Positions 1,624-10,963 of a stretch of DNA of 27,321 nucleotides are shown piece by piece; within the stretch, counting starts at the first letter, position 1; each line of letters begins with the position of its first letter. The notes beneath the pieces were generated by a model. That model was given only the letters and a program-made list of their open reading frames with translations, made no database searches and was not told the DNA's origin. The position numbers and the translations under genes are program-made. Source of the stretch: an uncultured beta proteobacterium. GTDB taxonomy: Bacteria > Pseudomonadota > Gammaproteobacteria > Burkholderiales > Rhodocyclaceae. The stretch spans positions 1 to 27,321 of the forward strand of contig CAJBIL010000077.1 in assembly GCA_903953145.1 (NCBI GenBank), written 5' to 3'.

Positions 1624-1627
<4 letters not shown>
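1..1627 (+). CDS. Multi-PAS/PAC sensor histidine kinase, 5'-truncated by the window edge (PAC-PAS/PAC-PAS-like-HisKA-HATPase)
   Basis: The frame of ORF 98..1627 is open back to base 2 and reads RWIETYKKPVISQSGKLFGTVGFARDVTDRKEM (a PAC motif), so the real start is upstream. PAS_3-like WEERIHPDD and YRLRCKDGSYKWILARG; H-box AAHELRTPMASIYGF (His codon 911-913); N-box NVLSNAYKYS; G boxes DQGIGM and GTGLGM. Confidence 0.93.
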
Positions 1628-5886
<4,259 letters not shown>

Positions 5887-5893
5887 AAATCAA

Positions 5894-7120
5894 ATGACCA
5901 TGCTGATGAACCCACCATTGCGCCCGCCAGTACCGTATCCGAATCCGGCCAGTACTTTGATCCCCGCCGAAAAGCCCCGCGACACCGTACTGGTGATCGA
6001 CGATAGCCCGGAGATCCTCGGCATCATTAACGCACTGCTCAAGGATGACTACCGCCTGAAGGCGGCGAATGGCGGCGAGAAGGGGCTGCGGCTGGCCGTT
6101 AGCGAGCCGAAACCAGACATCATCTTGCTCGACATCATGATGCCGGACCTGAGTGGTCATGAAGTCTGCCGTCGTCTCAAGGCCGATCGTCTGACACGCG
6201 ACATTCCGGTCATTTTCCTGACGGCGATGAATAATGAGGCCGACGAGGAAACCGGCTTTGAACTGGGCGCCGTCGATTACATCGCAAAACCGATCAGTGG
6301 CCCGATCCTGCGCGCCCGGGTCAAGACTCAGCTAGGGGTAAAACTGGCGGCTGATTTCATCAAGGACAAAAACGTTTTTCTGGTCGGTGAGGTGTCCAAG
6401 CAGGCCAAGGAACTCGAATTCATCCAGGACGTAACTATTCTCGCCCTCGCCTCGCTGGCCGAAACACGCGACAACGAGACCGGCAACCACCTGCGTCGTA
6501 CCCAGCACTATGTGCGCGCGCTGGCGGTACACCTGCAGCGGCAACCGCACTTCTCTCATCTGCTGACACGGACCAACATCGAGCTGATTTTCAAGTCGGC
6601 GCCGCTGCATGACATCGGAAAAGTTGGCGTCCCCGACAGCATTCTGCTCAAGCCTGGCCGCCTGACTGCAGAGGAGTTCGAAGTTATGAAGTTGCACCCT
6701 GCACTAGGCAAGGAGGCGATTGAACACGCCGAACAGCAGATGGGTCGCAGCGCACCGTTTCTCCATTTTGCCAAGGAGATCGCCGGCAGCCACCAGGAAA
6801 AATGGGATGGTAGCGGCTATCCGGAAGGCCTGGCCGGCGAATCTATTCCTATCTCCGCACGACTGATGGCCGTCGCTGATGTGTATGACGCACTGGTTAG
6901 TCGCCGGGTCTACAAGCCGGGTATGTCGCACGAGGCTGCCAGCGAGATTATCCATGCGGGACGTGGCACGCACTTCGATCCCGAAATTGTGGATGCATTT
7001 GTCGATATTCAGGCGCAGTTTCGTGAGATTGCGGCACGTTTCAGTGACGATGCCGAAGCGAAAACAAACCCCGATACAAACGAAGATTTTGGCAAGGGCG
7101 TCGCCCGAGGCTGTGCATGA
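5894..7120 (+). CDS. REC + HD-GYP response regulator, putative c-di-GMP phosphodiesterase (RpfG-like)
   Basis: REC (VLVIDD, ILLDIMMP, IAKP) followed by RDNETGNH, LHDIGK, HQEKWDGSGYP, ADVYDAL. ATG 5894, 7 nt after the hybrid kinase stop, is preferred over the ORF-track start at 5837, which overlaps that kinase by 50 nt. Confidence 0.93.
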   Translation: MTMLMNPPLRPPVPYPNPASTLIPAEKPRDTVLVIDDSPEILGIINALLKDDYRLKAANGGEKGLRLAVSEPKPDIILLDIMMPDLSGHEVCRRLKADRLTRDIPVIFLTAMNNEADEETGFELGAVDYIAKPISGPILRARVKTQLGVKLAADFIKDKNVFLVGEVSKQAKELEFIQDVTILALASLAETRDNETGNHLRRTQHYVRALAVHLQRQPHFSHLLTRTNIELIFKSAPLHDIGKVGVPDSILLKPGRLTAEEFEVMKLHPALGKEAIEHAEQQMGRSAPFLHFAKEIAGSHQEKWDGSGYPEGLAGESIPISARLMAVADVYDALVSRRVYKPGMSHEAASEIIHAGRGTHFDPEIVDAFVDIQAQFREIAARFSDDAEAKTNPDTNEDFGKGVARGCA

Positions 7121-8016
7121 AAAAGATACTGATCGTAGAAGACCAAGCAAGCATCCGTAGGCTGCTTCGCCTTGCATTGCGCGACAGCTTTTCGCTGGAC
7201 GAAGCGAGCGAGGCCGATTCCGCCTATCAGCGAATACTTGCTGACCGCCCGGATGCAGTTGTGCTTGATGTGATGATGCCAGGCTCAATGAACGGGTATC
7301 AGTTGTGCGAGATGATCAAACGTGACCCTGCACTGGCAGATATTCATATCGTGCTGACTACGGCACGCGGCCAGGTGGCCGACCAGGAGTTCGGCCTTTC
7401 GCTCGGCGCCAACGCCTATTTTGTCAAACCATTCAGCCCGCTGGCACTGGCGCATCATTTGAGAGGTGCTTTGTTTGACGCTCCGGAAACGATGTCCGCT
7501 GCCGGCAAAACTGTTGCGGCTCATCAGGAAACCGAAAATGGCGCTCCCTTGCTTGGAGAATTTGAAGCTGCATGGGCGCACAGCCCATGGGCGATGGTTG
7601 CCATCGGTCGTGATGGCAATGTAAGTGCCGCGAATCCAGCTTTTGAGAGGCATACCGGGATGACCGGATCCGCCGTATTCGGCATGGGGGAGGCCGGACT
7701 CAGTGCGCTGTTCAGTTCGCTTTCACTCGAAAATTCGCGGGTCGAAACGAGTGGCAGTAATCTACGCGCAATCCATTACCTGAAAGAAGCGCCGGCAGGT
7801 AGAAACAACGAGCTGCAGCTGTCGCAGGTCGCTGAGCTACTGCGCGAACCGCTGGCCAGTATCTTCGGTTTTGCTGAACTGTTGCTGACGCAGAACTATG
7901 CCGAAGACGTCCGCCACGACCTGACGGAAACCCTGCTCAACCAGGTCGAAGCCATGTCGAACATCCTCAATGAGCGCCTGAACCTGACGCACAAGCCGAC
8001 ACCGGAGGTTCGTTGA
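7117..8016 (+). CDS. REC - degenerate PAS - DHp(HisKA)-like protein lacking the phospho-His and the HATPase domain
   Basis: Intact REC (IVEDQ, VLDVMMP, TTA, VKPF). HSPWAMVAI..AANPAFERHTGM resembles the PAS of the neighbouring kinases. The C-terminus VAELLREPLASIFGFAELLLTQ aligns to AAHELRTPMASIYGFAEVLLTQ. ATGA overlap with the upstream stop. Confidence 0.85.
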   Translation: MKKILIVEDQASIRRLLRLALRDSFSLDEASEADSAYQRILADRPDAVVLDVMMPGSMNGYQLCEMIKRDPALADIHIVLTTARGQVADQEFGLSLGANAYFVKPFSPLALAHHLRGALFDAPETMSAAGKTVAAHQETENGAPLLGEFEAAWAHSPWAMVAIGRDGNVSAANPAFERHTGMTGSAVFGMGEAGLSALFSSLSLENSRVETSGSNLRAIHYLKEAPAGRNNELQLSQVAELLREPLASIFGFAELLLTQNYAEDVRHDLTETLLNQVEAMSNILNERLNLTHKPTPEVR

Positions 8017-8221: not shown

Positions 8222-9109
8222 ATGCTTGATCGAGTTAAAAGCATGAATTCAAGGTTGCCTGGTTTTATCCTGTCGCTGTTACTCATCAGTTTTCCTGTTC
8301 TACTCAGCGCGCCTTTATCCGCTCAGGCACAAACCGCGCAAACTGGACAAAAATCACTGACGTTTGGCATCGTGCCGCAGCAATCTGCCAGCCGGCTGGC
8401 TGAAGAGTGGGGGCCGCTCTTTGCGGAGATCAGCAAGCGTTCCGGGGTCCCGCTGGTTTTCCGAACGGCGTCGAGTATTCCCATTTTCGAGGAGCGTCTG
8501 GCGCAGGGCGACTACGATCTGGCCTACATGAATCCTTACCATTACGTGGTCTTCCATTCGAGGGTTGGCTACCAGGCTTTTGCCAAGGAACAGGACCGGA
8601 AAATTCGAGGTATTCTGGTGGTAAGGAAAGATAGTTCCTATCAGAAACCTGGTGATCTAGCCGGAAAAACCGTGGTGTTTCCGGCACCGGCTGCCTTTGC
8701 CGCCAGTATCCTCCCGCAAGCCGAGTTCGGCCGGCTGAACATTCCCATCGATGCCCGTTTTGTTGCATCGCACGATTCGGTCTACCGCGCTGTCGCGTCC
8801 GGACTGCAAGCTGCTGGTGGTGGAATTCAGCGTACCTTCGAGGCAACGCCCCCGGAAATCCGAAATACACTGCGCATCCTGACCGAAACGCAGGCCTATA
8901 CCCCCCACGCTTTTGCCGCACATCCCCGAGTTCCACCTGAAGTCATTAACCGGGTATTGGCGGCGATGGCTTCTCTGGCCAATGACGAGGCCGGGCGACA
9001 TCTACTCGCACCACTGGCCTTCAAGGGCATCATGGCCGCGCAGAACAACGACTGGAACGATATCAGGGCACTCGACATCACGCTGCTTGAACGTTACGGC
9101 CGGCAGTGA
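8222..9109 (+). CDS. Periplasmic PhnD/phosphate-phosphonate-binding family protein (no ABC partners adjacent)
   Basis: AGGAGG RBS before the ATG; signal peptide ending LSAQA; motifs LTFGIVPQQS, DLAYMNPYHY, FPAPAAFAAS, SHDSV, PHAFAAHP that are typical of the family. Confidence 0.85.
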   Translation: MLDRVKSMNSRLPGFILSLLLISFPVLLSAPLSAQAQTAQTGQKSLTFGIVPQQSASRLAEEWGPLFAEISKRSGVPLVFRTASSIPIFEERLAQGDYDLAYMNPYHYVVFHSRVGYQAFAKEQDRKIRGILVVRKDSSYQKPGDLAGKTVVFPAPAAFAASILPQAEFGRLNIPIDARFVASHDSVYRAVASGLQAAGGGIQRTFEATPPEIRNTLRILTETQAYTPHAFAAHPRVPPEVINRVLAAMASLANDEAGRHLLAPLAFKGIMAAQNNDWNDIRALDITLLERYGRQ

Positions 9110-9145
9110 GTATTTGCCGAATCGCGTTAACGCATAAAATCAGCC

Positions 9146-10963
9146 ATGAACTTTCGCACTAAAACCATTCTCGGTGTGGCACTGATCGAAATGGTCTTGC
9201 TCGTCATTCTGGTCAGCAGTGCCCTGTCGATTCTGCGGGATTCCAACGAGGCCGAACTGACGCGTCGGGTGCAACTGGGCGGCCAACTACTTGCAGTCGC
9301 AGCCAAAGATGCGGTCATCTCGGAGGATCTGGCGACCCTCGACAGCCTCGTTGCCGAGGCGATGGCGTCGGGCCAGATTGCTTTCGTTCGCATCGTCGAC
9401 GCTGCTGGCGTGGTGCTTGCCGAGCGTGGCGACGCCTCCTTGCTTGCCCGCACCTTCCATCCGCAAGCGCATATTGATCAGGTAAGCGACGGCATCTTCG
9501 ACTGGGTTGCACCGATCATGGCGGGGCGCATTCAGCAGGGCGAGGTACGGCTTGGCGTGTCGACTGCGCCCATGAAAGGCCTTTTGGCCTCGGCTCAGCG
9601 CTGGGCAGCCGGCATTGCTGCAATGGAAATGGTGCTCGTCGCACTTTTTTCCTGGTTGCTCGGCAGCTATCTTGCCCGCCAACTGGTAGCGCTGCGTAGC
9701 GCCAGTTATCGCTTTGCCGCTGGCGATTTCGATTATCGCGTGCCGATCAAGGGTAATGACGATCTGGCACAGACTGCGCAGGCGTTCAACAGCATGGCGC
9801 AGCAACTGGGTGACAGCAATGAACTGCTGCGTACCGAGAATATGATGCGCCAGGATGCGCAATTAGTGGCTGAACGGGCTCAGGCCTGGGCCGAGGACAA
9901 AAGCGAGCAACTAACGGCTATTTTTGCCTTGAGTCCCGACGGCTTTGTTTCCTTCGATATGCAGCGTCGTGTCAAGTACGCCAGCCCGGCCTTCATGCGC
10001 CTGACCGGGTTGACCGAGTCCGAAATTGTCGGGCTCGACGAAAGTATGTTTTCAGAACGACTTGCGCGTGAATGTACCTCTCCGGCAAGCTTTCCAGGCA
10101 TTTCAGCACTGCGCAGTGCACAAAGAATCAGCACTTCCAGCGCGCAGCGTCAGACGATCGAAATCGCGGGCGCTGGCAAGCGCATCCTGGAAATTGGCCT
10201 GCGTGTATCCCAGGCAGGTACCGTCACGCAGATTCTCTATCTGCGCGATATCACCCATGAATCGGAAGTCGACCGTCTGAAGAGTGAATTTCTTTCGATG
10301 GCTGCGCATGAACTGCGGACACCGATGGCGTCCATCTATGGGTTCACCGAGTTGATGCTGACGCAGGCGTTTACACCAGAGGAGTGCAACGAATTTCTGG
10401 AGACAATTTTCCGACAATCGGAACTGATGATTTCAATCATCAATGAACTGCTCGACCTGGCCCGAATCGAGGCACGTCGCGGTACGGATTTCAGTATTGA
10501 GTCAATCGACCTGTGCGAACTGTTGCCCAAGATCATTACAGGTTTCCGGGCACCAAACGGTAGGGACTCTCCCGAATTACGAGTCGCCGTCGGTTCACAG
10601 TGTATTCGCGCCGACCGAAATAAACTGACCCAGGCTGTGCTTAACGTCCTCTCGAATGCCTACAAGTATTCGCCCGAGCGTAGCGCCGTAAGCGTTGAGC
10701 TGACGCCAATTGCCCCCGGCACATCGCTGAGTGGCATCCGCATCACCGATCACGGCATCGGAATGACGCCGGCGCAATGTGCCCGTATCTTTGAGCGCTT
10801 TTACCGCGTCGATACGTCCGGCAAAATTCCGGGCACCGGGCTGGGCATGAGCATCGTCCATGAAATTGTCCAGTTGCATGGCGGCCAGGTTGAAATTACC
10901 AGTCAGATCGGGGTTGGCAGCACTGTTACCCTCTGGTTTCCTACCCCGGTTGTTCCGTCTTGA
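9146..10963 (+). CDS. Membrane HAMP-PAS sensor histidine kinase
   Basis: Two TM segments around a periplasmic domain; HAMP (FAAGDFDYRVPIKGNDDLAQTAQAFNSM); PAS LSPDGFVSF; H-box AAHELRTPMASIYGF (His codon 10307-10309); NVLSNAYKYS; DHGIGM; GTGLGM. Confidence 0.94.
   Translation: MNFRTKTILGVALIEMVLLVILVSSALSILRDSNEAELTRRVQLGGQLLAVAAKDAVISEDLATLDSLVAEAMASGQIAFVRIVDAAGVVLAERGDASLLARTFHPQAHIDQVSDGIFDWVAPIMAGRIQQGEVRLGVSTAPMKGLLASAQRWAAGIAAMEMVLVALFSWLLGSYLARQLVALRSASYRFAAGDFDYRVPIKGNDDLAQTAQAFNSMAQQLGDSNELLRTENMMRQDAQLVAERAQAWAEDKSEQLTAIFALSPDGFVSFDMQRRVKYASPAFMRLTGLTESEIVGLDESMFSERLARECTSPASFPGISALRSAQRISTSSAQRQTIEIAGAGKRILEIGLRVSQAGTVTQILYLRDITHESEVDRLKSEFLSMAAHELRTPMASIYGFTELMLTQAFTPEECNEFLETIFRQSELMISIINELLDLARIEARRGTDFSIESIDLCELLPKIITGFRAPNGRDSPELRVAVGSQCIRADRNKLTQAVLNVLSNAYKYSPERSAVSVELTPIAPGTSLSGIRITDHGIGMTPAQCARIFERFYRVDTSGKIPGTGLGMSIVHEIVQLHGGQVEITSQIGVGSTVTLWFPTPVVPS

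Follow-up and report, generated by a model that had tools for sequence, protein, structure and literature searches.

Can a protein built on sensor-kinase parts still serve in two-component signalling once it lacks both the histidine that kinases phosphorylate and the domain that binds ATP? This question is raised by the gene at positions 7117-8016 of a 27,321-nucleotide stretch of DNA from an uncultured betaproteobacterium of the Rhodocyclaceae (contig CAJBIL010000077.1 of GenBank assembly GCA_903953145.1), the whole of which is referred to here as the window. A sequence-only reading had described the product as a receiver (REC) domain, a PAS domain and a DHp hairpin with Glu in place of the phospho-accepting His, and had proposed that it pairs as a decoy with two paralogous kinases encoded nearby (2-1627 and 9146-10963) or sequesters their receiver. 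Judged by its sequence, the product joins a signalling receiver to a sensor-kinase stub that has lost its catalytic capacity. The stub belongs to a family of freshwater Betaproteobacteria that is rare and conserved and has apparently not been described before; its members are invariably accompanied by a receiver of their own, which they probably dock without any chemistry. Our confidence is about even that it is a functional, non-catalytic two-component protein in which the REC is tethered to the PAS and to the altered hairpin (hereafter the pseudo-DHp).

The open reading frame (ORF) is organised as follows.

7117 to 8016, + strand: the REC-PAS-pseudo-DHp ORF, 299 amino acids (aa).
7117 to 7476, + strand: receiver (REC) domain, residues 1-120 (Pfam Response_reg at residues 4-115, E-value 1.3e-21).
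7267 to 7269, + strand: codon GAT of the phospho-acceptor D51 in the REC active site.
7477 to 7557, + strand: linker, residues 121-147, disordered and nearly free-evolving (predicted local distance difference test, pLDDT, <50 at residues 122-146).
7558 to 7794, + strand: shortened PAS-like domain, residues 148-226 (partial PAS_4/PAS matches; BLASTP to both kinases).
7795 to 7986, + strand: pseudo-DHp, a HisKA-type helical hairpin, residues 227-290 (Pfam HisKA, ungapped kinase alignment, AlphaFold2 helices).
7834 to 7836, + strand: codon GAG of Glu240, at the position of the phospho-accepting His (sequence and kinase alignment).
7846 to 7848, + strand: codon GAA of Glu244, at the His+4 position (sequence).
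8014 to 8016, + strand: stop codon TGA, about 10 residues past DHp helix 2.

The REC active site is complete, as the sequence-only reading had it, with the acidic pair E8/D9, D51, T81 and K104 in place; the domain is a Response regulator receiver (PF00072) by both profile match and active-site residues, and these residues are kept in all 20 REC partners of the family described below. For the rest of the protein, a profile search recovered HisKA (PF00512; residues 234-291) at 27.6 bits, just above the gathering score of 26.9, and a split-form orthologue scores 32.5 bits, while the PAS matches (residues 149-190) are partial and sub-threshold, PAS_4 reaching 20.7 bits against a gathering score of 23.1 over the first 40 residues only. 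BLASTP nevertheless links the ORF to kinases 2-1627 (E 2e-15) and 9146-10963 (E 1e-17), with 41 gap positions in the PAS region of the second alignment. On this alignment, its PAS shares ancestry with the final PAS in each neighbouring kinase and is about 35-40 residues shorter, much as first estimated. The DHp similarity is far beyond chance: residues 239-290 align without gaps to both kinases, and the AAHELRTPMASIYGF shared by these neighbours corresponds to VAELLREPLASIFGF in the ORF. The H-box reads AELLREP where the kinases have AHELRTP, so that residue 240 stands opposite the His of HELRTP in both, which upholds the proposed His-to-Glu swap. Leu241 occupies the acidic His+1 position and Glu244 the His+4 Thr position of the neighbouring kinases, leaving E-L-L-R-E in place of the H-E/D-x-x-T/N motif.

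The absence of an ATPase domain was likewise borne out. Pfam detects no HATPase_c domain in the ORF, which ends shortly after helix 2, and a permissive tblastn search with the kinases' post-DHp parts returned only noise from the 205-nucleotide spacer up to the next gene (8222). No promoter or terminator signal was found between 7900 and 8300. The AlphaFold2 monomer (mean pLDDT 67.8) comprises the REC (1-120), a disordered linker (122-146), a PAS-like unit of helices and four strands, one fewer than in the full PAS fold (145-224, pLDDT ∼80), and a two-helix hairpin with helix 1 at 227-258 and helix 2 at 263-288 (pLDDT ∼80-86). A Foldseek search of the whole model against the PDB returned nearly exclusively receiver domains and nothing informative for the PAS-pseudo-DHp part, and residues 140-299 had no sequence match in the PDB at E ≤ 0.01.

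The ORF is one member of a family. A search of 5.8 billion proteins yielded six full-length relatives (54-79% identity, 290-299 aa), one truncated relative (P0005, 236 aa) and about 20 proteins of ∼170 aa that match the PAS-DHp half only, at ∼50% identity; an exhaustive search of representatives added further short PAS-pseudo-DHp proteins, as well as stand-alone receivers of 121-135 aa with 48-64% identity to the N-terminal half. Full-length kinases with His, the orthologues expected had this copy decayed recently, do not make up this family: all 51 distinct relatives lack both the His and the ATPase domain and end soon after DHp helix 2. In H-box statistics drawn from these 51 sequences and from 72 related true kinases, the His position holds Glu in 43 of 51, Ala in three, and Lys, Thr, Gln, Asp or Gly in one each, and never His; seven of the eight exceptions are relatives with Ala, Gly, Lys, Gln or Asp, and the eighth is the second repeat of P0124. 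His+4 is Glu in 49/51 and Thr or Asn in none, and His+1 is hydrophobic or small across the family (acidic in 1/51). All 72 true kinases carry H-E-[LI]-R-[TN]-P. The earlier suggestion that Glu240 mimics phospho-His is weakened by this distribution, the Thr-to-Glu change at His+4 being better conserved than Glu at the His position itself.

HisKA proteins depend on the acidic residue at His+1 to act as kinases and on Thr/Asn at His+4 to act as phosphatases (PMC3510030). Because these two residues and the His have all been replaced, neither catalytic signature is left in the family, nor is the acceptor, and catalysis by the pseudo-DHp is excluded as far as motifs can tell. Two alternative acceptors were considered and rejected: His220, though common, alternates with Tyr and sits in a PAS strand, and His267 lacks conservation across the family. 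No conserved His occurs in the helices at 227-288 across the family. As a separate observation, P0124 (244 aa, metagenomic) carries a second pseudo-DHp hairpin in tandem, with TLLHEPL as its second H-box.

When each species was represented by a single genome, 18 carried the family. They are without exception metagenome-assembled genomes (MAGs) of Betaproteobacteria, for the most part from lakes and groundwater, and belong to Propionivibrio, Rhodocyclaceae, Sulfuritalea, Sideroxydans, Methylotenera and Nitrosomonadales. Among 400 genomes sampled evenly across the order, the module was present in one other genome only, and within the window's genus it occurs in two of four other genomes, in both as a split form. 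A literature search of limited scope found neither a described His-less, ATPase-less DHp family nor a REC plus PAS-pseudo-DHp module.

Pairwise ratios of nonsynonymous to synonymous substitution rates (dN/dS) were calculated by the NG86 method; distant pairs with dS above ∼1 are saturated and were excluded from the conclusions (loci are given by L-numbers). For the C-terminal half, dN/dS was 0.10 between the window and L081, 0.14 between the window and L006, 0.06 between L015 and L017, and 0.10 between L026 and L029. Domain by domain, comparison of the window with L081, its closest orthologue, gave 0.09 for REC, 0.11 for PAS and 0.08 for the pseudo-DHp, with 0.06 for the adjoining REC-HD-GYP gene; the linker, an internal neutral control, gave 0.73 and has 26% identity. 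Relaxed selection on the C-terminal half, which would have spoken for decay, is not what these ratios show: purifying selection there is as strong as on REC. With a conserved truncated family and purifying selection both in evidence, the proposal of a selected regulator survives.

The genomic context shows which gene accompanies the pseudo-DHp throughout. In most genomes REC and PAS-pseudo-DHp are two adjacent genes whose stop and start usually overlap, and the commonest order is sensor kinase, REC-HD-GYP, REC (∼125 aa), PAS-pseudo-DHp (∼165 aa); the linker of the window's protein matches the boundary between the two genes of the split genomes. All 20 tabulated members have a REC of one specific clade, either directly upstream (15, mostly overlapping) or fused (5: the window, L006/L012, L081, L083 and L082). 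A frameshift or assembly artefact as the source of the fusion was ruled out, since the gene is also fused in four other independent assemblies (L006/L012, L081, L082, L083). The REC-HD-GYP gene lies directly upstream of the module in most family loci, and the kinase upstream is either a hybrid with an Hpt domain, as at 1624-5886, or of the neighbours' type without Hpt (L016, L019, L027). A neighbour-type kinase lies within a few kb of the pseudo-DHp in the window, L006, L016, L019, L023, L024, L025, L027 and L028, and was not found in the flanks (≤10 kb, several contigs being much shorter) of L001, L003, L013, L014, L015, L017, L020 and L021; at least two such genomes have neighbour-type kinases elsewhere (L040 with L015; L034 with L022). 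REC, rather than the kinase, is the constant partner of PAS-pseudo-DHp. The conservation of architecture and neighbourhood that the sequence-only reading put up for checking holds in part: the truncated PAS-pseudo-DHp architecture is kept, whereas REC is often a separate gene and the paralogous kinases adjoin it in only about half of the loci.

To place the module among its relatives, a PAS-DHp tree was built by a quick IQ-TREE search with a midpoint root. All 21 pseudo-DHp sequences in it form one clade (SH-aLRT 100) on a long stem, nested among betaproteobacterial kinases of the neighbours' type, so that the paralogy claimed in the sequence-only reading is confirmed as descent from the neighbours' subfamily. 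In the receiver tree all receivers adjacent to or fused with a pseudo-DHp also form one clade (support 98), and the two trees show matching groupings. The nearest relatives of these partner RECs are single-domain RECs encoded beside neighbour-type kinases, both in genomes with the pseudo-DHp (L016, L023, L034) and in genomes free of it (Aquabacterium, Roseateles, Methylovulum and a Deinococcus plasmid); identity of the REC clade to them is 33-51%, compared with 26-31% to the window's other RECs. L016 and L023 carry REC-kinase and REC-pseudo-DHp pairs in tandem. The REC plus PAS-pseudo-DHp module arose once, from the kinase subfamily of the neighbours, and the simplest reading of these sequences is that a receiver-plus-kinase pair was duplicated and one kinase copy cut down to PAS-DHp, with loss of the His. 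The fused L082 falls beside the split L001 in the PAS-DHp and the receiver tree alike, apart from the fused clade of the window, L081, L006 and L083, and therefore at least two independent fusions took place. That genes always adjacent and co-diverging have been fused repeatedly argues that the REC and PAS-pseudo-DHp products work together physically, which is classical evidence for such a link, not proof of it.

What the family has kept of the kinase was examined position by position in 21 pseudo-DHp sequences and 64 kinases. Thirteen positions of helix 1, from A239 to L257, are conserved with the same residues in both groups. Conserved switches from kinase to pseudo-DHp are H240E, T244E, M246L, L270T and I273L. 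Only the kinases conserve the residues preceding the His and the final turn of helix 2, and only the pseudo-DHp is conserved near the hairpin loop (Q259, Y261, R266, L269, L274, E278 and N282). In kinases, the residues preceding the His lead from the sensor and the final turn of helix 2 leads to the ATPase domain; when a receiver binds a kinase, it occupies helix 1 below the His together with the part of helix 2 close to the loop. The pattern fits a docking face that was kept or refined and a catalytic, ATPase-facing interface that was discarded.

The architecture, the loss of catalytic residues, the conservation of the family, purifying selection, the obligate pairing and repeated fusion with REC, and the origin in the kinase subfamily are shown by the sequence comparisons. 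Dimerisation, REC docking, dependence on phosphorylation and a downstream effect we infer. We favour, with a confidence balanced between acceptance and doubt, a non-catalytic dimeric docking platform for the protein's own receiver, acting by a logic like that of DivL and DivK within an HD-GYP phosphorelay. On this reading the pseudo-DHp would retain the receiver-binding face of its kinase ancestors as a dimer, with its own receiver as main client; other receivers that this kinase subfamily serves, among them the one in the HD-GYP enzyme, may be further clients. Phosphorylation of D51, by the cluster's kinases or the Hpt of the hybrid kinase, would alter both docking and the conformation of the PAS-pseudo-DHp part, and the protein would read out or buffer phosphoryl flow in a relay controlling the HD-GYP c-di-GMP phosphodiesterase.

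Several points weigh against this reading. The AlphaFold2 monomer has a predicted template modelling score of 0.37, and the relative placement of REC and pseudo-DHp, or any contact between them, is not readable from it; a two-copy prediction of the whole protein, run without controls, scored 0.15 (mark 0.42) and speaks neither in favour of dimerisation nor against it. Helix 2 past the loop is unlike that of the kinases (L270T, I273L), so that docking specificity may have shifted, and the class of positions conserved only in the pseudo-DHp may be partly inflated by the narrower diversity of that clade. The genes downstream of the module vary, being a 108-aa protein and an HDOD protein in most genomes and a binding protein and kinase here, and the family is known solely from metagenome-assembled genomes.

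Among known systems, DivL of Caulobacter offers the closest functional analogy. In DivL the His has given way to a non-phosphorylatable residue (Tyr; Ala in one species), and the catalytic and ATP-binding (CA) domain is dispensable; the protein is devoid of kinase and phosphatase activity and binds DivK~P via its receiver-docking face, its PAS domains conferring phospho-specificity (PMC4211667). Both proteins are kinase-derived with the acceptor His replaced by a residue that cannot be phosphorylated, and as DivL binds and co-evolves with a single-domain receiver, the pseudo-DHp is paired and co-diverges with its own REC. DivL differs in that it still has an ATPase domain, is anchored in the membrane and carries several PAS domains, whereas the pseudo-DHp protein has no ATPase domain, mostly Glu at the His position, Glu at His+4 and a receiver that is often fused. 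DivL is also alphaproteobacterial and not an ancestor, the pseudo-DHp nesting in a betaproteobacterial kinase subfamily. We consider the two related at the superfamily level only, and regard it as an even call, by analogy, that the protein works most like the DivL/DivK pair. Set against the DivL type as defined by a replaced His in a retained DHp-CA fold, the protein has the replaced His and no CA domain.

Spo0B/ChpT-type histidine phosphotransferases are likewise DHp-like hairpin dimers that dock receivers and have no kinase activity, and they pass phosphoryl groups on through a conserved phospho-accepting His. Neither pseudo-DHp helix has a conserved His, which sets the family apart from Spo0B, ChpT and Hpt-like proteins. 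By profile and model, then, the pseudo-DHp is a HisKA fold, yet it fails the defining features of kinases, of phosphotransferases and of DivL. RpfC/RpfG-type relays, which combine a hybrid kinase bearing Hpt with a REC-HD-GYP protein, are arranged like genes 1624-5886 and 5837-7120, with the REC plus PAS-pseudo-DHp module attached in most genomes; we know of no such pair in Rpf systems, and it is an added element here.

The decoy proposed by the sequence-only reading, in which the pseudo-DHp enters mixed four-helix bundles with kinases 2-1627 and 9146-10963 and poisons their autophosphorylation under control of its REC, seems to us unlikely. It draws on the 13 helix-1 core positions identical to those of kinases, on the two neighbours being the closest DHp relatives in the genome, on the frequent, though not constant, presence of such kinases within a few kb, and on the precedent of RetS, which inhibits GacS by breaking up the interface of the GacS DHp dimer (PMC8498467). 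RetS-GacS of Pseudomonas aeruginosa does show one kinase-like protein controlling another by DHp-DHp contacts and not phosphotransfer (PMC8498467), but RetS is a complete hybrid kinase that includes receivers and an ATPase domain, whereas the constant partner of the pseudo-DHp is a receiver and not a kinase. Moreover, about half of the loci have no such kinase in flanks of ≤10 kb, many genomes have the kinases and no pseudo-DHp, and the conserved helix-2 positions 270 and 273 are switched relative to kinases. Docking of its own receiver is favoured over heterodimerisation because REC is constant and co-diverging and a kinase sits next to the module at only about one locus in two.

A second group of readings turns on the acidic residues. 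It is distinctly unlikely, in our view, that the twin carboxylates at the His and His+4 positions mimic a phosphorylated H-box and clamp the unphosphorylated receiver, making the protein a hitherto undescribed type of two-component accessory, a kinase "fossil" reduced to its docking face that sets a stoichiometric threshold for an HD-GYP/c-di-GMP phosphorelay; if true, the repeated gene fusions would be evolution tightening the clamp. A related receiver trap, in which Glu240 and Glu244 as phospho-His mimics hold an unphosphorylated REC-Mg2+ (its own or that of the REC-HD-GYP protein) in a dead-end complex, so that the relay responds only beyond a threshold of kinase activity, we judge very improbable. 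Its attraction lies in a pair of acidic side chains spaced by one helical turn, at exactly the places that the phosphoryl group and catalytic Thr take up in active kinases, in the frequency of Glu at both (43/51 and 49/51), in the retained docking-face residues, and in a REC-HD-GYP gene as nearly constant upstream neighbour. Natural relatives with Ala, Gly, Lys, Gln or Asp at 240 mean that mimicry there is not essential, however, and a tethered REC would seem permanently unphosphorylatable unless the PAS governs release.

For an auxiliary phosphatase, in which the pseudo-DHp docks REC~P and speeds its hydrolysis without an ATPase domain, Glu244 positioning the water, there is only a slim chance. 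HisKA proteins act as phosphatases through the DHp, independently of the acidic His+1 that kinase activity requires (PMC3510030), and His+4 is nearly invariant in the family, but the Thr or Asn required there (PMC3510030) is replaced, with Glu in 49/51 and neither in any, and DivL, to which the protein is functionally most similar by analogy, is not a phosphatase (PMC4211667). A decaying, functionless remnant of a kinase gene, for which the loss of all catalytic parts might speak, is scarcely credible and is refuted by the selection and conservation data, namely dN/dS values in close pairs of 0.05-0.13 for DHp and PAS, compared with 0.73 for the linker, the same architecture in at least 18 species-level genomes of several families, and the grouping of all members in one old clade with a long stem.

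The genes around the ORF are as follows.

2 to 1627, + strand: PAS kinase with H-box AHELRTPMASIYGFAEVLLTQ, its 5' end cut by the contig end; a member of the parent subfamily of the pseudo-DHp.
1624 to 5886, + strand: hybrid sensor kinase, 4HB_MCP-HAMP-GAF-PAS-HisKA-HATPase-REC-REC-Hpt (Pfam).
5837 to 7120, + strand: REC-HD-GYP gene (Pfam HD_5 and Response_reg; HDIGK and GYP (GSGYPEGL) motifs).
8222 to 9109: PhnD-like periplasmic binding protein, directly 5' of kinase 9146-10963.
9146 to 10963, + strand: HAMP-PAS kinase of the same subfamily as 2-1627 (Pfam, alignment, tree).

The cluster thus counts three kinases (2-1627, 1624-5886 and 9146-10963), one fewer than the four-kinase circuit envisaged in the sequence-only reading; every other observation of that reading held when checked. 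Within the window's own genome, the sole DHp match besides the two neighbouring kinases is a much weaker one on contig C16 (E 1.6e-4). The hybrid kinase is likely, given its RpfC/RpfG-like arrangement, to be the phosphodonor for the two downstream receivers, and the same gene stands 5' of REC-HD-GYP in L006, L013, L020, L024 and L034. An ATGA at 7117-7120 overlaps the start ATG of the pseudo-DHp ORF with the REC-HD-GYP stop. The longest REC-HD-GYP ORF opens at GTG 5837, within the end of the hybrid kinase gene (stop 5886); its true start is probably an ATG near 5894 (MTMLMNPP...), and orthologues are 378-398 aa long.

On the 3' side, the module is followed by a periplasmic binding protein and neighbour-type kinase in the window, Propionivibrio (L006/L012) and L016. 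The PhnD-like protein and HAMP-PAS kinase pairing (8222-10963) has no transporter genes alongside, and pairings of a binding protein (phosphonate- or SBP_bac_3-type) with a kinase of this subfamily recur in L006, L016, L019, L034, L040, L062 and L066. In most other genomes PAS-pseudo-DHp is followed by a 108-aa protein without a Pfam family (L003:5252-5578 and homologues) and then by HDOD. Modelled with confidence by AlphaFold2 (pLDDT 87), the 108-aa protein is similar in fold to domains that stand at the N-terminus of HD-GYP, HDOD and HD proteins in the AlphaFold DB. At L018:1096-3525 the pair of 108-aa and HDOD genes occurs twice in tandem 3' of PAS-pseudo-DHp, and a distant copy of the 108-aa protein (34% identity, L084:387-710), followed by an HDOD gene (710-1555), lies on another small contig of the window's own genome.

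The congeners L015 and L017 (G404 and G401) have the split form with 108-aa and HDOD genes; identity to the window is 84% for REC-HD-GYP, 69% for REC and only ∼52% for PAS-pseudo-DHp. L040, from the same MAG as L015, ends within the hybrid kinase that opens L015, and the joint order is probably binding protein, kinase, REC, kinase, hybrid kinase, REC-HD-GYP, REC, pseudo-DHp, 108-aa protein and HDOD, which would be the parts of the window rearranged. Elsewhere, a REC-HisKA-HATPase gene is intact at L002:7398-8591 (397 aa), and the near-identical L001:14416-15609 is split into genes for 231 and 127 aa by a frameshift or an assembly error. A subfamily kinase with a related single-domain receiver, often with an HD-GYP-like gene, was also found at L061, L057, L062, L067 and L077 in Aquabacterium, Roseateles, Methylovulum and a Deinococcus yunweiensis plasmid. 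Because it is present in these hosts, the module of kinase and CheY-like receiver, with or without HD-GYP, is far wider than the pseudo-DHp family and has crossed phyla.

The family is small and rare and is known from uncultured bacteria only. Its members are also masked in annotation, where labels such as "response regulator" and "signal transduction histidine kinase" conceal a non-catalytic protein. Few cases of pseudo-histidine kinases are known, DivL being the best studied, and for the reuse of the kinase-receiver docking surface in regulation instead of catalysis this family provides a minimal natural case of ∼165 residues with no ATPase domain and one dedicated receiver. Its natural split and fused versions and its variants at the His position form a compact, experimentally tractable system that bears on what makes a DHp a pure receiver sensor, on the role of the PAS in phospho-specificity, and on how such elements are wired into c-di-GMP control by HD-GYP enzymes.

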